Counted from the first letter of the stretch, positions 23,466 to 33,219 are shown. The stretch: DNA of 34,961 nt from Candidatus Thorarchaeota archaeon (GCA_048884785.1 JBHLQM010000017.1:18284-53244), one strand, 5' to 3'. Numbers and translations: made by a program. Notes: generated from the letters alone by a model not told the origin.

Positions 23466-26294
23466 TCACTCCGTATATTGTATCTGTTCTGCAATGTTCT
23501 TTCTTAGTGCTGCAGATGTGACAACATATGTTGCAGCCAATGCAAATGTGCAACTGAGAGCAAGTATCGCTCCCAGCAGTAACCAAGGTACCGCAATGAA
23601 CACTGGAAGTCTAATCCACATGCTCAATGTGCCTGTACCGAAATATACCAGTGGCATATTAATTGCGAAGTATGAAAGCATAAGACCAATTAGTGACCCA
23701 ATTCCAGCCGCGACTAAGAGACTGAGAGTAGTGTCAATCAATACGGCACTCTTTATCGATTTGCTTTCAGTCCCCAGTGCTCTCATCACGGCGAACTGCT
23801 TTCTGAGCCCTCTAACTCGTACTGTTGAAACTATCATCATGCCAATCGACAAGTAGATGATTGTGAAAAGGACATTTATTGTATAGATCCCATATATTGA
23901 CTGTCCGGCTTTTGAGTCGAGTACTCTATCTATCTCTGTATATGGAGATTCAATGCCTTCAAAACTGTATGGGGCCACTTCCCATAGATTCCTCATAACT
24001 TCTGTGTAATTCGCTTCAAGATCCATTCTGACTAGGAATTTGTTGATTTTTGTTGTATTCAAGCAACGGTGAACATAATCCAAATCTACTACAACGAATC
24101 TGCTTGAGTCGGCCTCACCAGGGAGATAGGTTTGCCCTGAGCCTTGAGAATTGGACATTACATCAACTATGTTCATGTCCGAAACATTAGTCCAACTCTC
24201 ACCTTTCAAAGTGAGGGTAATTGCATTTCCATATACTGGGGTTTGATAGAAGCCGCTTTGGATATAATGATCAATTGGTTGAAACGATGCAAGCACATTC
24301 GTTTCATTCTCTATCATTTGAGATATGGCATTCTCGGGAGTAGACAGAAGTGTGAAATATTGAAGCCAGAATGCTGTATCTTTCCATTTTTCGAGGTCCA
24401 CAGCGTATACAAGTATGCTCTCATTTCTATATACTCTTCTTGTCCATTCACTTGTCCAGTATTGAATGCTCCCTTGCACTTTGAATACTGGACACACCTT
24501 CGATACGCCTTCCACAGTCGTTAGATTCTCAAGAAGATCCAGGGTTACATTCGATAGGCTACCATCCACAGTTATCGCGAAATCGGCCCCTGTATAGAAT
24601 TTGTGTACAGATACCATGTGATTGTATCCAGTTGTGGCGGATAATGAAGAAAATACACCGGCAGTAAACACCATCGCAACAAAAACAACGCCCATTGCTT
24701 CGCTTTTCTTATACATCAATACAGTCCTTGCCATTACCTGCGTACCAACTCGAAATGACGGCTTCTTGATCATTTCCATGATTCCTGATTTGAAACGTGA
24801 TGTAGGGCGAGCAGCTAATCTGGCAAATGCAATGATGAAAACGGCTAGTAGAGGAACAAGCCATATCAGAAACGAGAGAGACATAAATGATAGGAATCCA
24901 AAGAACCCTAGGATTGTCATAGTTGGAACGAGAATATAGCCTGACAGAGCTAGGGCAAGTAGCTCCACCATCGGGCTTCCTAGATTCTCCTGTGAGAGTA
25001 ATGATTCACGTTCAAGAATATTATGGGCTTCAGTTGCAGTCATCAAGTAAGCCCGAACAGCAACCGGTATCGCCACAATTATGCCAACCCCAAATGCAAA
25101 GGTAAAAATCGTCACTATTGCATTTGGATGGAAGGTCATAGTGAGATCGAAAAGCTGGGTCAAGTCGAAGACGAAGAACGTCTTCACCGTGACCGAAAGC
25201 AAAGCAGCAAGAGCTCCCATCAAAACTGCTCCTAAGCTGCCAAGTATTCCAGTCACAATAGCGCTGGTAAGAATCCATGAGAAGGCCTGCCAACCTGATG
25301 CTCCGCGGGTCTTTATTGTACCTACATCTCGTCTTAATTCATCATTCATGAGATTGGAATTGTAGTAGATTAGTAAAACGCCCATAATGATACTTGGAAT
25401 TGAGAATGAAAGCGCAAGAGCAGTCATTCCCATCGCCCAGGAAGTATACTCGAAGAGACTATTTAGTAGACCAAAATTAGATACCATCGCCAACGGGAGT
25501 GCATCTTGCTCAAACTGTCTTCTTAGGTTGACAAGTCTATCTTCAATCTCTGTTGGTTCGCCTTGAATTATTGAAGACCTATCGAGTCGAACCCAATATT
25601 TTTCAGAAATACCGTTATATTGGCCATAACCTAATTCGCCAAAACCCTCGTTTAATGTGTCTTTAGTAGTAATTATGTCCAGACTGGATTCCCTATCAAT
25701 CTCAGCATAATAGTAAGGATAGTATTCATCAGTGAATAGGTCGGTTGTGAATGTGCCGAGGATTTCTAGCTCTACACTAATCGTCACTTCTTGATAGTAC
25801 TCATCGTACGTTATAATTTCAATAGTGTAATTATCCCCAATATCATAATCATCTGTCAGGAAAATGGATTCGCGTAAATAACACCCATTGTCTGCAAGGT
25901 CTAGTGCATCACTTCCTATATCAAATACATTTGGAAATGTATCAAAGAAAGTCATTTCTACACCCAGAAGCACAATCCTACGCCATTCGTAGTAATATCC
26001 AAATTCTGCATACTGGTCAATTATACTCAGAGGTTCAATATTGGTGACTAGCTCCTGTTGATTCAGCAAGTCTTCAATTGCAGAAAGCTCTGTTTCATTT
26101 TGCCTATAGAATGATGGTGATATTGAAACCTCCATATCAACATCTAGATTTTGAGTCAAATCATTGAGAACATTTGGCCCAACACTGTCCATATAAAAGA
26201 GAATACCGCCTAACACGCCTGCTGAAAGAGAGAATATCAGAAATGTTGTCAGCACCTGCGGAGCCTTAGACATCAATCTGGAAAATAGAAACAT
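23466..26294 (-). CDS. Large FtsX/MacB-like ABC permease (two FtsX modules)
   Basis: RRDVGTIKTRGAS and RKQFAVMRALG motifs, two large extracellular domains. Start moved from 26339 to ATG 26294. Confidence 0.88.
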   Translation of the reverse strand: MFLFSRLMSKAPQVLTTFLIFSLSAGVLGGILFYMDSVGPNVLNDLTQNLDVDMEVSISPSFYRQNETELSAIEDLLNQQELVTNIEPLSIIDQYAEFGYYYEWRRIVLLGVEMTFFDTFPNVFDIGSDALDLADNGCYLRESIFLTDDYDIGDNYTIEIITYDEYYQEVTISVELEILGTFTTDLFTDEYYPYYYAEIDRESSLDIITTKDTLNEGFGELGYGQYNGISEKYWVRLDRSSIIQGEPTEIEDRLVNLRRQFEQDALPLAMVSNFGLLNSLFEYTSWAMGMTALALSFSIPSIIMGVLLIYYNSNLMNDELRRDVGTIKTRGASGWQAFSWILTSAIVTGILGSLGAVLMGALAALLSVTVKTFFVFDLTQLFDLTMTFHPNAIVTIFTFAFGVGIIVAIPVAVRAYLMTATEAHNILERESLLSQENLGSPMVELLALALSGYILVPTMTILGFFGFLSFMSLSFLIWLVPLLAVFIIAFARLAARPTSRFKSGIMEMIKKPSFRVGTQVMARTVLMYKKSEAMGVVFVAMVFTAGVFSSLSATTGYNHMVSVHKFYTGADFAITVDGSLSNVTLDLLENLTTVEGVSKVCPVFKVQGSIQYWTSEWTRRVYRNESILVYAVDLEKWKDTAFWLQYFTLLSTPENAISQMIENETNVLASFQPIDHYIQSGFYQTPVYGNAITLTLKGESWTNVSDMNIVDVMSNSQGSGQTYLPGEADSSRFVVVDLDYVHRCLNTTKINKFLVRMDLEANYTEVMRNLWEVAPYSFEGIESPYTEIDRVLDSKAGQSIYGIYTINVLFTIIYLSIGMMIVSTVRVRGLRKQFAVMRALGTESKSIKSAVLIDTTLSLLVAAGIGSLIGLMLSYFAINMPLVYFGTGTLSMWIRLPVFIAVPWLLLGAILALSCTFALAATYVVTSAALRKNIAEQIQYTE

Positions 26295-26295
26295 G

Positions 26296-29076
26296 CTACA
26301 TGTCACCCCCATATGGTCCTGATTCTGCCCAACTCGCATTCAATGACTCAGCAATATTAATTCGTGTGGTCAAGGCGGCGACAACGGCGATAAACACGAT
26401 TACTGATACAACAAAGAAGAGCAAGACGCTTATCATCGTAATTAGAGGATAGATTGGATAAACAGGAATTGGATACGTATAGTATGATGTCTTATATGTC
26501 ATGAGAGTATTGGAGATATATAGCGGGGCATATCCTGCAAGCAGAACAAGACCTGCACCAACAAGAACGACCATCTCCGCGATTTGAGCTTTTATGACAA
26601 CGCTCCTATCCCCACCCATCGAGCGGATGAGTGCGATCTCTCTTTTGCGTGCTGTCGCACCCTCAAAGGCATAGATACTGAAAGCCGCGAATATTACGAC
26701 TGAAGAGGCAATTGTTAGCATTGTATCAACAGCACGGTCAATCTTATAGGATGTCTTCTGTGTGAAATAATCTACTTCATAGCTAGCCGAAGTCCAATCC
26801 CATTCGGTTATCAGGAGTGAGCCGCCTTGATTCAAAACATCCTCGACCAATTGTGTGCTATTCGAGCCCTCTGGGGTTCTAACGCAGAGAACATTGTGTG
26901 TTGAATTTGCCAGATTAATTATGGAACCGAAATAATTGCGATTTACCCAAATTGTGTTGGAACCCATTACTTCAAAGTAAGGAGTATAGAAATACGGACT
27001 GTCGGTTCCTGTATCTCTATAGATTGCGTTTGAGAGCACTTCCGAAATTCCTACCACGGTGAAAACAAAGATTTCCTCAGCACCTTCCCAATCAAATGAG
27101 AATCCTCTCAATGAGTCACCAACTCCTAGGTTATAGGAGTCTGCTATATCTCTAGAAATGATTGTACCTGACGGCGTGGAAATTAAAGCTTGCAGCAGTG
27201 GCGCAAGCTCAGATTCATTCAATTGCACTCCTCTATAATCATACCCCACATATTGATACTCTTCTGGATCAATTGCCATTACAAAGGCGTAATCCCAGTA
27301 ATCAGAAGAAAGGCGTATTTCTGAGATTGAAACCATCGAAGAAGCAAGGCACAGTTCATGTTCAGATACATTTGCCCTGAAATCATCCCATAGAGGAGTT
27401 GGGTAACTTCCAAGATGAAATGATGCATCACCTCCAAAAGTGAACCGAGCTTGGTTTAGCTTGGTTGTTGGCATGGAAGCACCGATTATCGCATAGGTCC
27501 AGGCTATGCTCATTGAAAGAACAAGTACAAGAATTGCTGGTCCTGCCGAGGATGCGCTCTTGCCAATACGTCTGACACCAACAGAGGAGGGCAAAACTCC
27601 AATTACTTTATTCATCCCACGTGAAATGTGGATGGCGCCTCTGCGGAGGACTTTGATGCTTAGGCTTCCAATAGCAATGAATAATGCCAATGGAATGTAA
27701 CCTGCAATCATTGAAAAGAAGTAACTATATTGAAGAATTGGACCCAACCCTGATACAGCGACAAGAAAGAGAATTGAAAGCACAAGTAACACGATATCCC
27801 ATTTAATGAATATCAGCACTCTAGATAATTTCTGAAGCTTTCCTTCACTCTCCTCTATTCTTCTCTTTGTAGAGAATACTGCATTATATCCGAACCAGGT
27901 GAAGACGGGTAGAAAGAATCCAACAATTACTGCAATAACAAGGGAATCCAAACTAATCAGGAATGGTTCAGTAAAGAACTTATCCGGAGAGAAGACAAAG
28001 TATCCTTCAGAAGCAAGGCCAAATCTACTAAATAGCAATCCAAGGGCCAAGCCTGTTATTGCGCCAATTGCAGAGAGTCCCACGATTTCCTTCAGCATGC
28101 GCCTCTCTATGTCTCCTACGGATGCGCCACGCGACATGAGCATATTGTTCTCATATCTTTTCTCATTCATGTTATGACGGATGGCAAGGAATAGCACAAG
28201 TACGACCAGTACAATGACTCCCCCCGCGCGAAGTAGCTGACTATACCTCATACTGGATTGCCAGTTGATGTACATACTAACCGCTTGGGACAATCGGTCA
28301 TCTACCCAAAATGAACCGTAGTAGTATTGCGGACTGTAGCCTGGTTCTAGCTCTCTAATTGATTGTTCTATATTGAGAAGATACCCCAATGAACCTGCGG
28401 CATTGAATGGAGTGAGCGGAGACCTATCGATCTCAATATCAACCATTCCCTCATCTTCGAATGGATTTAGTCTATCTTGAGTGACAATTGCGATTGCACT
28501 ACCGTACCAAAAATAGTACACATCGTCGCTTGTGACTTGTCCAAAGATTCCGACCACAACCATAGCAAATGGTTCTGCTGGTCTATCAGGCTCATAACTA
28601 TAATTGACCAATCCATTGACAACTACATCGAGCTGTTCAGCCACTCTTCTGTCCAATGCAATCTCTGAGCTATTTTCAGGAAATCTCCCCTCAATTAGAT
28701 CGAACCTTTCTGGAAAGCCCTCAAAATAGTCGGCGTCCGGTGCAACGAGTGTACCCCAGATATCCATGTCATCAATAGAACCAATACGTGGTCTAAGGAC
28801 ACCCCATGAGCCTGCAATATAATGTGCCTTTGTAACTTCTGGGAGAGAACGAATTTCATCAACATAGTTCTCGATATTATTACCATGCGCTGACATGGCG
28901 ACTTCTCCCACTTCGCCCACCAAGTTATTCCATTCGTGGACCGAGAAGGAATCAACATACACCAGAATGCCCATTGCCATTGATGAAGCAAGCAGGATGC
29001 AGAGTAGTGATACACTCTTGCGACGAAGGCCCTGTAACGGTTCATAGCCAACTGGAACTGCCGACAAAGCTCGCAC
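26296..29076 (-). CDS. Large FtsX/MacB-like ABC permease (two FtsX modules)
   Basis: KRYENNMLMSRGAS, RKREIALIRSMGG and LIEGRFPENSSEIAL (MacB periplasmic-core-like). Confidence 0.9.
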   Translation of the reverse strand: MRALSAVPVGYEPLQGLRRKSVSLLCILLASSMAMGILVYVDSFSVHEWNNLVGEVGEVAMSAHGNNIENYVDEIRSLPEVTKAHYIAGSWGVLRPRIGSIDDMDIWGTLVAPDADYFEGFPERFDLIEGRFPENSSEIALDRRVAEQLDVVVNGLVNYSYEPDRPAEPFAMVVVGIFGQVTSDDVYYFWYGSAIAIVTQDRLNPFEDEGMVDIEIDRSPLTPFNAAGSLGYLLNIEQSIRELEPGYSPQYYYGSFWVDDRLSQAVSMYINWQSSMRYSQLLRAGGVIVLVVLVLFLAIRHNMNEKRYENNMLMSRGASVGDIERRMLKEIVGLSAIGAITGLALGLLFSRFGLASEGYFVFSPDKFFTEPFLISLDSLVIAVIVGFFLPVFTWFGYNAVFSTKRRIEESEGKLQKLSRVLIFIKWDIVLLVLSILFLVAVSGLGPILQYSYFFSMIAGYIPLALFIAIGSLSIKVLRRGAIHISRGMNKVIGVLPSSVGVRRIGKSASSAGPAILVLVLSMSIAWTYAIIGASMPTTKLNQARFTFGGDASFHLGSYPTPLWDDFRANVSEHELCLASSMVSISEIRLSSDYWDYAFVMAIDPEEYQYVGYDYRGVQLNESELAPLLQALISTPSGTIISRDIADSYNLGVGDSLRGFSFDWEGAEEIFVFTVVGISEVLSNAIYRDTGTDSPYFYTPYFEVMGSNTIWVNRNYFGSIINLANSTHNVLCVRTPEGSNSTQLVEDVLNQGGSLLITEWDWTSASYEVDYFTQKTSYKIDRAVDTMLTIASSVVIFAAFSIYAFEGATARKREIALIRSMGGDRSVVIKAQIAEMVVLVGAGLVLLAGYAPLYISNTLMTYKTSYYTYPIPVYPIYPLITMISVLLFFVVSVIVFIAVVAALTTRINIAESLNASWAESGPYGGDM

Positions 29077-29077
29077 C

Positions 29078-29779
29078 TCAGGTGATGTTCACAATTCTTC
29101 CATCACGCATATTGTAGACCTTATCCATCTTCTCGCCAACATCGGGATCATGAGTAACAACCAGAAGTGTTCCTCCTTCTCCTTTTGTGAGATTGATGAG
29201 AATCTTCATGATGTCCTCTCCAGTTTGAGTATCAAGATCTCCTGTCGGTTCGTCAGCTAATACAACCACCGAACTTGACGCCCCGGGAGGTTTTGCAAGA
29301 GCACGAGCTATTGCAATTCGCTGTTGCTCTCCCCCAGAGAGCTCATCAGGACGGTGGTCAGCTCTCTCAGAGAGGCCAACCAATCCCAGAAGATGGTCCA
29401 CACGTTCTTTTCTTTGGGATTCTTCAACGCCCCCAATAAGCAATGGAAGTTCCACATTCTCATATGCGGAAAGGACAGGCAAAAGATTGAAGAATTGAAA
29501 GACGAAACTAATCTTGTTTCTTCGAACGCCAGTTAGCTCTTTCTCATTCATCGTCGTGATATCGACACCATCGATAACCACTCTTCCAGATGTGGGTCTG
29601 TCGAGTGCACCAATGAGGTTAAGCAATGTCGTTTTGCCAGAGCCAGAGGGACCCATAATCCCTATAGCTTCACCTCGGTGTACTTTTAGAGATACACCCC
29701 TAAGTGCAGGAACTTGGATATCGCCCATAGTGTAGATTCTTGAAACGTCGTTAAGGTCCACGATAGTATCATTCGCCAT
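29078..29779 (-). CDS. LolD/MacB-type ABC ATPase
   Basis: GPSGSGKT, FVFQFFNL, LSGGEQQR, LADEPTGDLD and VTHD. Confidence 0.95.
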   Translation of the reverse strand: MANDTIVDLNDVSRIYTMGDIQVPALRGVSLKVHRGEAIGIMGPSGSGKTTLLNLIGALDRPTSGRVVIDGVDITTMNEKELTGVRRNKISFVFQFFNLLPVLSAYENVELPLLIGGVEESQRKERVDHLLGLVGLSERADHRPDELSGGEQQRIAIARALAKPPGASSSVVVLADEPTGDLDTQTGEDIMKILINLTKGEGGTLLVVTHDPDVGEKMDKVYNMRDGRIVNIT

Positions 29780-30011: not shown

Positions 30012-30650
30012 ATGTCTGACGAACTCATGACCATGAAGTACGAATTCTTCAGCCGGAAGGGATTTTTGGCGGCAGCCATTGTGATATCGGTTTCTCTAGT
30101 TTTGCAGTCTTTCTTTGGTTTCCCAGAGATTTGGACTGCTCGGCCAATCGAGTACATAGTGCTTATCATTGCCTCTGCTTTGATAGTCGGATTTGCGGGA
30201 GGAAGTGTGCTTGTCTTCCTATTTCCTCCTGATCAGGATGTGATAGGAGTGGCTGGTCTTGGAAGTGACGATGCGACTCAACATATAGCACTCTTTCTCG
30301 TTATACTTGCACTTGTACAGCCTTTACTATCAGGTTTCTTTCTCTTCTTTGAGTACTTTGGGAATGATCCCTTTGCTGTGATTTGGGTCATTGTTGGATT
30401 CGCTGCTCCAAGCGCCGGATTTGCCGTTTCGATGTACGATCGGACAAGGGCTATTGCCTCTGACCTCGAGGAATACTTTAAGCAAAACAAGAAACTCGAT
30501 CTTACATCACTTGATTGGCTTTTAGGACTTGGACCTAGAACTGCTGTATATAGAATGGGTATGCTTGAGAATGCTGCATCCAGAGTAAAGGGAATTAGAT
30601 TCAGAGGTCACGAGATAATAAAAGATCCAGACCAATTTGCCATTACCTAG
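30012..30650 (+). CDS. Hypothetical membrane protein (about 4 TM helices plus soluble C-terminal domain)
   Basis: Long ORF filling the gap, with a hydrophobic N-terminal two-thirds. Confidence 0.8.
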   Translation: MSDELMTMKYEFFSRKGFLAAAIVISVSLVLQSFFGFPEIWTARPIEYIVLIIASALIVGFAGGSVLVFLFPPDQDVIGVAGLGSDDATQHIALFLVILALVQPLLSGFFLFFEYFGNDPFAVIWVIVGFAAPSAGFAVSMYDRTRAIASDLEEYFKQNKKLDLTSLDWLLGLGPRTAVYRMGMLENAASRVKGIRFRGHEIIKDPDQFAIT

Positions 30651-30665
30651 TTGAACCACGATAAT

Positions 30666-30980
30666 CTAGGAGTGCTTTTGCTTCATGTGAGCAGCAAGAC
30701 CCTCTTCAGTCCATGCAACCCAGCTACATTTCAAACAGGAGAGCTTTCTGCTACCCACTCCGAATCGAGGTGCAGGTTTCTCTTCAACCTCATAGATTGT
30801 TCCGCCATAACCACTCCTTTTCTTGGTTCCAATTTTGAATCGCTTCCTGAAGCAATCTTCACATATTCCCTGTTTTTTCATCTCTTCCGTGACAAAGCTA
30901 TCTTCAAGGGTTTTTACCGGAGGTGGAGTCCCTCTTTCTTCCCCACAACTCTCGCATAGTCCGTCTGTTATGGTTACCAA
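30666..30980 (-). CDS. Small double zinc-finger protein (C4 plus C2H2)
   Basis: CESC-x27-CEDC and C-terminal CLKC-x12-H-x4-H; TTG start. Confidence 0.8.
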   Translation of the reverse strand: MVTITDGLCESCGEERGTPPPVKTLEDSFVTEEMKKQGICEDCFRKRFKIGTKKRSGYGGTIYEVEEKPAPRFGVGSRKLSCLKCSWVAWTEEGLAAHMKQKHS

Positions 30981-31078
30981 CCTTCCTATCTGCAGGTACT
31001 CAAGTATCGTGATATTGCAGATATAATAATCCGCCTTATTTGCTTTATCAGTATCTGGAATCGAGAAATAAGTGGGAC

Positions 31079-32590
31079 TTAGGGTTCCTGGAGTGAGGTC
31101 ACATAAAATTCGCTAGCGGTTCTAAAAACATCCTCAGTTCCTTCGCCGGTTAGACATGATGTTTCTATGAATGCTATGGGATGCAGCCTGCCTTCAACTC
31201 CAATGCTTTTGGCAAGACTTTCAGCATATTTGAATCCCTCATCGCTTGTTACAGGAGGTTCGAGTGGATCAGGTTCACCCATATCTCTGACATCCTTCTT
31301 GTTTCCCACAAGAATGATGGGAGGCGGCACTATCTGTTTTACTGTAGCCTCTTTTAGCCAAAAGTCCAAGCTCTCAAAGCTCCAGCGATCAGCAACAGAA
31401 TAGACGATGATAATTACATTCGCCTCAGCATAGAACTGCTTCCTCGGAATTCGTGCATTTACTGCATCATCGAACGACCAGACATTGATATCTACTCGAT
31501 AATCTTCGAGTTGGACAATTGCCGACCTGATGTATTGCTTGGGATCTCCGTCAATTTCAGGTCCCTCTTGAATTTTGAGTCCAGCTCTTTCCATAATACT
31601 ATGCTTTCCGACACCCACCTCACCAAGGATTACTACCTTTGCTCCTACTAGGGGACGAACTGCATGCTTTGGCGTCTTCTTGGTCCTTGAGGCGGTCGCC
31701 TCTTCAAGCGAAACTGATCCCTGAATTTCCGTTTCTATGATTCTATCTTCTTGATCAGACATTGCTAAGATTTGCTCATCATCTTCTGCTTGAATAATCG
31801 CTTCCTCAAGATCCTCGATTGATTCGGCTTTCTCAAGTTCTTCTATCCGTGGTGTTGCTTCATCTTCGGATTCAATGACAGGAGTTTCTCTTAGAGGTCT
31901 GGTTGGTTCCGTTGCGCTTGAAGCTGAAGCTGCAACAATTTCCTCTGAGCCCGATAGCGCAATACGTATCTGTGGCTTCATATTGGTTGTAGGTTTTTCT
32001 ACGGTTTTGTTCTCTAGACTTGGGGCCATAAAGGCGTCGCTAAGAGATTCTACTGCGGACAGGGCATCTTCAATACCGGGTAGGTCCGTGTCATCTATAA
32101 CTGTGACCTCGCCAGGCACAACCCTCTTGTGTGGTGCCTCTTCATCTCTCTTGATGTCAGGCACTTCTTGCTCTTCATTTTCCTCCAATGACTGAACAGA
32201 AAAAACAGGCTCCGGCTTGGCTTCGATATCTTCAACTCTTTCAGTTTCTCGGGTGATTTTTTCAACAGTGGTTTGCTCGGAAATTATCATCTTTGCCTTT
32301 GGGACTCCGACTGCAATTAGTGATTCCTCCAATACTCCTGGTGGAAGAATCTTCCCTTGGAATTTGAAGAACACCTCTAGGTCTTCAAGCACTTCTCCAA
32401 AGGACCTATTTCTCGCTTTGATTTTCTTTTTTACTAGGCCTTTGTCACGTACCTCCACAAATCCTGGCATCAATGCGATTGTGACGGTTGTGCCCGGTAC
32501 TCTCAGATTTACCCAACTCCAAGGTGTTTGTTTGTGATATGTCTCTACATATCTTAACTGTTTTGTGAATATCTCCTTTGCGTTTGCCAT
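31079..32590 (-). CDS. Multidomain protein: N-terminal domain, acidic low-complexity linker, C-terminal Rab/Ras-like (pseudo)GTPase domain
   Basis: KVVILGEVGVGKHS, FYAEANVIIIVYSV..RWSFESL..WL, IILVGNKKD and FIETSCLTGEG. Confidence 0.88.
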   Translation of the reverse strand: MANAKEIFTKQLRYVETYHKQTPWSWVNLRVPGTTVTIALMPGFVEVRDKGLVKKKIKARNRSFGEVLEDLEVFFKFQGKILPPGVLEESLIAVGVPKAKMIISEQTTVEKITRETERVEDIEAKPEPVFSVQSLEENEEQEVPDIKRDEEAPHKRVVPGEVTVIDDTDLPGIEDALSAVESLSDAFMAPSLENKTVEKPTTNMKPQIRIALSGSEEIVAASASSATEPTRPLRETPVIESEDEATPRIEELEKAESIEDLEEAIIQAEDDEQILAMSDQEDRIIETEIQGSVSLEEATASRTKKTPKHAVRPLVGAKVVILGEVGVGKHSIMERAGLKIQEGPEIDGDPKQYIRSAIVQLEDYRVDINVWSFDDAVNARIPRKQFYAEANVIIIVYSVADRWSFESLDFWLKEATVKQIVPPPIILVGNKKDVRDMGEPDPLEPPVTSDEGFKYAESLAKSIGVEGRLHPIAFIETSCLTGEGTEDVFRTASEFYVTSLQEP

Positions 32591-32658: not shown

Positions 32659-33219
32659 ATGACAGATATTGATTTTCGCGATTACGTTGAAGTGATTAAG
32701 GATTGGCCAGAACCTGGAAAGGCAGTGTGTGATATTAGTCGCTTATTGGAGCATCCAACGGTCTTTCACGAAGCTGTTGTAGTACTTGCAAAACCATTCT
32801 TGGATGTGCAACCCAACAAAGTGATAGGTATTGAGCAGAGAGGTCTCGCGCTGGGCAGTGCTATTGCATACTACTTAGGATGCGGGATTATTCCGGCTCG
32901 GTCAATTGCCTACCTTCCTGAGGATTATAGCAGACCTGTAGAGTTCATGCCGTCTAGCAGATTTGCTGATAGACGTCTTGCTCTTGTGGCAGATTCGATA
33001 GACCCTGGAGACCGAGTAGCTATTGTCGATGATTGGCTTATTCAAGGGACTTCAGTCCTTGCAGTAGAAAGAATTGTTGAGAAACTAGGTGCACAAGTAG
33101 TTGGGGTCGCATGCGTTATAAATAATTTAACTGAAGCGAGACGGAAACTACTTGGACGTCCGGAAATACATTCTCTCATAGAGAACCTAGAAACAGACGC
33201 CTTTTCTCCAGTAGATTAA
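32659..33219 (+). CDS. Adenine phosphoribosyltransferase-like type I PRTase with degenerate motifs
   Basis: DWPEPG..DIS.LL, GIEQRG and PGDRVAIVDD give an APRT-like architecture; catalytic loop and PRPP loop are atypical. Confidence 0.8.
   Translation: MTDIDFRDYVEVIKDWPEPGKAVCDISRLLEHPTVFHEAVVVLAKPFLDVQPNKVIGIEQRGLALGSAIAYYLGCGIIPARSIAYLPEDYSRPVEFMPSSRFADRRLALVADSIDPGDRVAIVDDWLIQGTSVLAVERIVEKLGAQVVGVACVINNLTEARRKLLGRPEIHSLIENLETDAFSPVD

Follow-up and report, generated by a model that had tools for sequence, protein, structure and literature searches.

The window considered here is a stretch of 34,961 nucleotides (nt) from Candidatus Thorarchaeota archaeon (GCA_048884785.1 JBHLQM010000017.1:18284-53244), and all coordinates given are positions in that window. 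Within it, the open reading frame (ORF) at 31079..32590, on the minus strand, is intact, opens with ATG and encodes a protein of 503 amino acids (aa; P0001) in which a Ras-family GTPase domain (G domain) follows a long N-terminal region. We think it rather likely that this protein is a pseudoGTPase specific to the Thorarchaeia and derived from the RasL group, one that probably binds nucleotide without hydrolysing it and serves as a tethered adaptor together with the products of neighbouring genes.

The G domain, with the conserved TPxHxIKPxV lead-in that precedes it, occupies residues 306-503 (31082..31675, minus strand, as are all features of this protein). It is matched by the Pfam Ras profile (PF00071) over residues 318-492 (E 2e-15; 57.1 bits against a cut-off of 21.6), more strongly than by the Roc profile (E 1.3e-09), and AlphaFold2 (AF2), run with a 120-sequence alignment, models residues 313-501 with pLDDT >94, as one of three confident parts of a protein whose remainder lies below pLDDT 50. 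The initial annotation of the gene had placed a Ras-family domain at the C-terminus, and both the Pfam match and the coordinates of its landmarks bear this out (His330 at 31601-31603; W371-D375 at 31466-31480; G4 at residues 430-433; G5 at T477-L480). When the modelled domain was searched with Foldseek, the top structures were those of a Thorarchaeota Rab (7EZE, 7EZB and 7EZD; E 2e-13, TM 0.84), and next came Rab and Rho proteins of eukaryotes (overall TM 0.8-0.88). A Ras/Rab fold is thus retained, but to call the protein Rab-like, as had been done, overstates the case: it belongs with the Asgard RasL group and lacks a prenylation Cys. The protein ends in TSLQEP, with no Cys and no prenylation motif in the Rab sense, as had also been noted, and no C-terminal Cys is found among the 38 homologues displayed.

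The guanine-recognition motifs of the domain are intact, G4 reading N430-K-K-D433 (31292..31303), the NKxD of guanine specificity, and G5 reading E476-T-S-C479 (31154..31165), in agreement with the pattern (E)[TS][SA]x. The other motifs depart from those of a canonical switching GTPase. The G1 motif or P-loop, G323-E-V-G-V-G-K329-H330-S331 (31598..31624), has a His at the Mg2+-ligand position where GxxxxGK[ST] calls for Ser or Thr; the G3 motif at the start of switch II, W371-S-F-D-D-A376 (31463..31480), replaces W-D-x-A-G-Q and with it the DxxG(Q) pattern; and the switch-I Thr of G2 is missing. Four canonical RasL paralogues in the same genome provide an internal control. These read GKTS, T(I/L)GxD(F/L), WDLAGQ(E), NKxD and ETSA; their alignment with our protein is free of gaps in the motif regions, so that GKTS stands opposite GKHS and WDLAGQ opposite WSFDDA, while T(I/L)GxD(F/L) falls on a non-conserved stretch devoid of Thr. 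In Ras numbering the changes are S17H, no T35, D57S, A59D, G60D and Q61A. With the G-domain fold preserved and the G1 Ser, the G2 Thr and the G3 DxxGQ gone, the protein answers to the description of a pseudoGTPase, a G-domain fold from which one or more catalytic motifs are missing. A shift in the register of the P-loop, which would make Ser331 a new Mg2+ ligand, was considered but is unlikely: GKTS is already the reading of the canonical paralogues, whose alignment is gap-free, and the Ser or Thr at 331 is thus an inherited residue rather than a ligand that has moved.

These features are not peculiar to a single gene. Among 5.8 billion proteins searched, 169 homologues reached E<=1e-3 (best 4e-163), nearly all of them 410-515 aa long and of the same architecture, and those that carry names are Thorarchaeota; the counts that follow come from an alignment of 120 homologues. 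In the P-loop, G323, E324, V327, G328 and K329 are each found in 120/120 sequences. Position 330, the former Mg2+-ligand position, varies more than any other column of the motif (R38 H22 K17 G15 E9 S8 Q6 A2 N2 L1), Ser being kept in 8/120, and position 331 is Ser (78) or Thr (38) in 116/120. In the G3 region, W371, F373 and A376 are present in all 120 sequences, D374 in 119 and S372 in 107; the Asp at the former Walker-B position survives in a single one of the 120. The guanine-recognition motifs have been kept throughout, with N430 and D433 in 120/120 and the Lys between them in 119/120, S478 in 117/120 and T477 in 113/120. No conserved Gln, Arg or Thr candidate appears in switch I or switch II of the family alignment. 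The altered Mg2+/gamma-phosphate machinery (the S17, T35, D57, G60 and Q61 positions) alongside intact G4 and G5, previously described from one sequence, is accordingly the state of the family. The same does not hold for GKHS, which is present in the window protein without being a conserved motif (His in only 22/120); judged from the alignment, its His marks a clade, at a position that drifts freely, and the fixed derived signature is WSFDxA. By eye on the tree described below, the charges at positions 330 and 375 show no clear pattern of covariation.

Mean identity to the query is 53% in the G domain, 52% in a small N-terminal domain (residues 28-104) and 58% in a helix at residues 165-190; it falls to 23-28% in the two linker segments and to 15% in residues 1-27. 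The three conserved regions thus show a pattern indicative of purifying selection.

With the Mg2+ ligands, the gamma-phosphate Gly and the catalytic Gln all lost family-wide, canonical Mg2+-dependent hydrolysis and switching of the Ras type are very unlikely, a judgement we hold with good confidence. The P-loop Lys and glycines, NKxD and the G5 Ser are strictly conserved at a mean identity of ~53%, and for this reason we infer that guanine nucleotide is probably still bound. The domain keeps the Ras fold, the P-loop glycines and Lys, NKxD and TSC, and has lost all three positions that supply Mg2+ ligands (the P-loop Ser/Thr, the switch-I Thr and the Walker-B Asp) together with the Gly that senses the gamma-phosphate and the catalytic Gln. 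Most likely guanine nucleotide is held without canonical Mg2+ coordination, with neither GTP hydrolysis nor Ras-type switching, and the G domain would act as a stable platform for interactions. The non-switching scaffold or guanine-nucleotide sensor of the initial annotation remains a putative role.

The history of these changes was followed in a quick maximum-likelihood tree of 40 orthologue and five paralogue G domains, rooted on the paralogues and assessed by SH-aLRT only. Orthologues and paralogues are separated with an SH-aLRT of 97. The rewritten G3 begins with W-S in 3/5 paralogues (WSFGEA, WSLEDA and WSPEGA), so that this beginning is probably older than the duplication. Sequences with Ser at 330 are scattered over the tree (P0132, P0055, P0018 and P0021/26), and the G1 Ser position has changed many times; this fits a Mg2+ site that would have been abandoned early, its Ser drifting freely afterwards. 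The sequence P0018, the only one to combine GKSS with WDFDAA, was considered as a candidate for the ancestral state and rejected, being nested in the quick tree within the clade of KHS/WSFD sequences, where reversion is more likely. In 3/5 paralogues the P-loop Lys is gone (GVGM, GVGM and GVGV), and NKxD is mostly retained among them.

The region preceding the G domain is built from segments of very different character. Residues 28-104 (32279..32509) form a small basic domain (the N-domain) with a net charge of +5, modelled over residues 28-100 as four strands followed by two helices, with pLDDT ~94 in two AF2 models, and carrying the motif PGYVEVRDKGxVKKKI. The earlier description of it as basic and unrecognised was apt: neither Pfam nor NCBIfam gave a match on residues 1-310, the best Foldseek hit in the PDB had an E of 0.24, VIA-align against 48,161 chains gave best Z scores of 6.0 (a de novo designed protein) and 5.4 (phage P7), which are at the background level of the tool, and the ESM Atlas gave no usable feature match, the query-normalised structure TM values all being <=0.34. 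We therefore refer to it as an orphan fold. A profile of the N-domain and the helix, built from 22 loci, was run against 1.84 billion proteins and retrieved only 48 representatives at E<=1e-3, nearly all of them 400-500 aa long and a few short or of low complexity; the N-domain thus occurs essentially only in the present architecture.

Between the N-domain and the G domain lie 201 residues (105-305) with a net charge of -34, of which 67% are polar or charged. Both the first part, residues 105-164 (32099..32278; net charge -10, 23% identity), and the second, residues 191-305 (31676..32020), which includes a short conserved patch at I210, G214 and A220, have pLDDT <50, and the view of this region as an acidic, disordered linker is upheld by charge and model alike. 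It is not featureless, however, since the two parts are separated by a conserved acidic amphipathic helix at residues 165-190 (32021..32098), as conserved as the folded domains. Its consensus is D-x-x-D-I-E-D-A-L-x-A-V-E-S-L-S-D-S-F-M-A-P, with A176, L177, S184 and F187 invariant in the 120 sequences, and AF2 models residues 167-188 as helical with pLDDT ~80, at equal confidence with or without the G domain. The helix looks like a short partner-binding element.

The N-terminal extension, residues 1-27 (32510..32590), is not conserved (15% identity in five aligned rows only; pLDDT ~50). In two loci of the same genus (L007:1513-1560 and L008), an in-frame TGA lies exactly at the codon corresponding to Trp25 of the window gene (TGG, 32516-32518), and no ATG, GTG or TTG occurs from this TGA to the conserved LRVPGTT strand, the first common start being a TTG at Leu40. 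Translation in these two loci would then either begin at a non-canonical codon, such as the CTG conserved at Leu29, or omit the N-domain's first two strands. Given the TGA at this position and the lack of conservation in residues 1-27, the true start of the window gene is uncertain. Recoding of the TGA codons seen inside the matches of other genomes was considered and rejected, as these are mostly stops just upstream of the true start.

The distribution of the family was addressed with the N-terminal 200 residues, searched against 300 other genomes sampled across the phylum. The N-domain and helix turned up in 68 of the 76 genomes from the family to which the window belongs and in the one genome (1/1) of a sister family in the same order, and in 0/224 genomes of other families in the phylum. 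One member of the same family, G128, whose genome is 97% complete in 20 contigs, is without the pseudoGTPase orthologue and also without the zinc-finger and membrane-protein genes described below; this single case fits the co-loss of a functional module.

In the window, the GTPase gene lies in a compact cluster. Downstream by 98 bp and on the same strand is a gene (30666..30980, minus strand) for a 104-aa protein with an N-terminal CxxC...CxxC zinc ribbon and a C-terminal finger of the C2H2 type, with the spacing C-x2-C-x12-H-x4-H; the pairing of a zinc ribbon with a classical C2H2 finger is unusual for a small archaeal protein. Convergent with it is a plus-strand gene (30012..30650) for a 212-aa protein with four hydrophobic segments, their topology judged by eye, and a soluble C-terminus of ~70 aa (the four-transmembrane, or 4-TM, protein). 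On the other side, head-to-head with the GTPase gene and 68 bp from its annotated start, a plus-strand gene (32659..33219) encodes a divergent APRT-like phosphoribosyltransferase. The local order is thus 4-TM gene (+), zinc-ribbon/C2H2 gene (-), GTPase gene (-) and APRT-like gene (+), flanked by an ABC transporter on one side and an acyl-CoA synthetase on the other. Neither the zinc-finger protein nor the 4-TM protein has a sequence match in Pfam, NCBIfam or the PDB, the nearest for the former being a weak hit to Pfam zf_C2H2_ZHX (E 0.085), below threshold.

This arrangement was compared across 17 loci from different genera of the one family. The membrane, zinc-finger and GTPase genes are adjacent in 17/17 loci, the adjacency in L023 and L033 having been confirmed by the genome search for the zinc-finger gene; the trio remains unbroken through an inversion in L027, and in L034 all four genes stand together despite changed outer genes. 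Both small genes are as restricted as the GTPase itself, the zinc-finger gene being present as a single copy in 62/76 genomes of the family and the 4-TM gene in 63/76, each with 0/225 among the searched genomes outside the family, and the discordant cases fall at contig ends. The linkage of the APRT-like gene is weaker: it is head-to-head with the GTPase gene in 16/17 loci and separated from it by the inversion in L027. Its product is ~80% identical across genera and scores 107 bits with the NCBIfam APRT model, against a cut-off of 224; for a guanine-binding pseudoGTPase, a neighbour related to purine nucleotides may or may not have meaning. In the interval 31015-31078 (minus strand), a T-rich tract immediately follows the stop of the GTPase gene, and a TATA-like element, ATTATTATAT, is found ~35 nt upstream of the TTG start of the zinc-finger gene. 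These elements suggest that the two genes are separate transcription units despite their strictly conserved adjacency, and because of them we claim adjacency and not an operon.

The build of the protein, with a basic orphan domain and a leash that carries a conserved helix, and its linkage to two lineage-specific genes suggest a tethered adaptor; that it acts specifically with the zinc-finger and membrane proteins is a proposal we put forward tentatively, its likelihood being less than even. The long acidic disordered leash joins the G domain to the small basic domain, and in this proposal the helix of the leash would be the element that binds a partner. The likeliest partners, we infer, would be the zinc-ribbon/C2H2 protein and the 4-TM membrane protein, whose genes always adjoin, and with these partners the assembly would lie at the membrane.

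No paper was found that describes the present family, nor any that combines pseudoGTPases with the Asgard archaea. The nearest characterized relatives are the Asgard RasL proteins, including Thor-Rab (7EZB, 7EZD and 7EZE), which share the fold and the lineage and have in common with the present family, as ancestral features, the GK-x-S context, a DRxSFxxxxxW helix, NKxD, ETS and the absence of a prenylation Cys. Both GDP/Mg2+ and GTP-gamma-S are bound by Thor-Rab, whose rates of phosphate release resemble those of Rab11B (Tran et al. 2024, PMC10933270), and in published trees no Asgard sequences are specifically sister to Rab, the Asgard RasL lying outside the Rab-specific clade (10.1101/2024.02.28.582541); the Thor-Rab and ArfR papers do not describe the present family. 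Thor-Rab is a single-domain protein, whereas the present one has ~300 extra residues at its N-terminus and has lost the Ser/Thr, Thr, Asp, Gly and Gln positions.

Among eukaryotic proteins, Rnd1-3, RhoH and the RGK group (Rad, Gem and Rem) resemble the present family in keeping G4, G5 and the P-loop Lys with altered switch and catalytic residues; in RGK proteins, too, the switch-I Thr is absent, and DxWE stands where DxxG would be. They differ from it in retaining the P-loop Ser/Thr and the Walker-B Asp, and hence Mg2+, both residues being lost here; their N-terminal architecture is different, and there is no common ancestry beyond the Ras superfamily. Our protein is not itself an RGK member, having WSFDDA rather than DxWE at G3, GKH rather than GK[ST] at G1 and no C-terminal extension for calmodulin or membrane binding, and its phmmer alignment with RAD covers residues 318-435 only. 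CENP-M, the pG1 and pG2 domains of p190RhoGAP, and the psGD of AAGAB likewise reuse a Ras-like fold, as part of a larger protein or complex, as an interaction module in which, as here, no catalysis is expected. These are nucleotide-free, with degenerate G1, G4 and G5 (PMC5593906, PMC12490416), unlike the present family, in which G4, G5 and the P-loop Lys are nearly or fully invariant across the 120 orthologues; only the paralogue clade with GVGM or GVGV approaches that state. The family sits between the nucleotide-retaining pseudoGTPases (RGK and Rnd) and the nucleotide-free ones.

Several points weigh against a nucleotide-binding, non-hydrolysing adaptor. Paralogues of the same architecture that have lost the P-loop Lys mostly kept NKxD, so that conservation of NKxD alone is no proof of nucleotide binding. 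RGK GTPases, which are without canonical G2 and G3, still bind Mg-nucleotide and hydrolyse it slowly, and by analogy some residual activity might persist by non-canonical means. At position 330, Gly and Glu occur beside basic residues, and the alignment suggests no single replacement chemistry there. With regard to the partners, the TATA-like box and T-tract between the GTPase and zinc-finger genes may mean that the two are not co-transcribed, and adjacency within one family may partly reflect shared ancestry, the genomes not being independent samples.

Some of these observations would suit a nucleotide-free (class i) pseudoGTPase, in which, as in CENP-M, the pG domains of p190RhoGAP or AAGAB, the Ras fold serves purely as a scaffold and the P-loop, NKxD and TSC are kept for the stability of the fold. 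All Mg2+ ligands have been lost, the paralogues demonstrate that motifs can persist without phosphate binding, and the bulky side chain (Arg, Lys or His) that 77/120 sequences have at 330 could fill the phosphate/Mg pocket. We nonetheless regard this explanation as unlikely, because K329, G323, G328, N430 and D433 are found in 120/120 and S478 in 117/120 at ~53% mean identity of the G domain, while G1, G4 and G5 are degenerate in the class i pseudoGTPases known so far (PMC12490416). Alternatively, the protein might be an active GTPase or switch with non-canonical machinery, in which Ser/Thr331 or Asp374 coordinates the metal, a catalytic residue is supplied in trans by a partner or through dimerisation, or hydrolysis proceeds slowly as in the RGK group. 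Such activity would be in keeping with the intact Lys and P-loop glycines, with the conservation of Ser/Thr331 (97%) and D374 (119/120), and with RAD, an RGK protein, being the best PDB sequence match (E 1.3e-09). It is made quite improbable by the ancestry of the residue at 331, which is that of GKTS, with no register-shifting insertion in the paralogue alignment; by the structures of the Ras fold, in which the residue after the Mg ligand points away from the metal site; by the unconstrained variation at position 330, where Gly, Glu, Arg and Leu all occur, which argues that no metal ligand is needed there; and by the want of any conserved Gln, Arg or Thr candidate in switch I and II.

Decay of a canonical Asgard small GTPase, in contrast, has a negligible probability. 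The loss of several canonical motifs in one gene and the 27 non-conserved N-terminal residues might have pointed to a decaying allele or pseudogene, the outcome that canonical G1 and G3 motifs in the orthologues would have favoured when the initial annotation called for GKHS and WSFDD to be checked there. Canonical G1 and G3 are not the state of the family, which rules this out; the ORF is intact, >160 homologues have its architecture and its derived invariant residues in common, and the gene is found in 68/76 genomes of the family, at a conserved locus and with a pattern of purifying selection in three regions. The nucleotide-binding, non-hydrolysing adaptor is the explanation we favour. It could be extended to a bolder one, which we hold to be improbable as a whole: guanine nucleotide would be bound metal-free, with the long polar or basic residue at 330 (R/K/H in 77/120) and the essentially invariant Asp374 occupying the Mg2+/gamma-phosphate site; the G domain would report occupancy by GDP/GTP, or by another guanine nucleotide, instead of hydrolysing it; a membrane-anchored signalling module specific to the Thorarchaeia would be formed with the C2H2/zinc-ribbon and 4-TM proteins; and the principle of the pseudoGTPase adaptor would have been invented by archaea before there were eukaryotes.

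Most known pseudoGTPases are regulatory scaffolds of eukaryotes, and this family would place one in the archaeal group closest to eukaryotes. A Ras-like domain here appears to have been made into a non-catalytic module, long fixed and then duplicated, joined to a domain of orphan fold and linked to two lineage-specific genes. Binding of nucleotide without Mg2+, if true, would be a new binding mode for the Ras superfamily, and the three-gene module, if true, would offer an experimentally tractable case of the Asgard GTPase expansion diversifying beyond switching. The family also serves as a warning that not every protein annotated as an Asgard 'Rab family GTPase' is a functional switch.

One of the paralogues is encoded in the same genome as the window gene (G000:C85, L002:991-2175, plus strand); it is 394 aa long, shares the N-domain and the conserved helix (here DLNILETALESVGDLSDRFLSP), and is further diverged in its G domain (GKQS, VWLPEGA and EISA). 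Its gene adjoins one for a leucine-rich-repeat protein. In the window itself, 23466-29779 on the minus strand has a MacB-like arrangement of an ABC ATPase gene with a pair of FtsX-type permease genes of very large size (957 and 926 aa); these genes flank the module in most genera and lie apart from it in L027 and L034.

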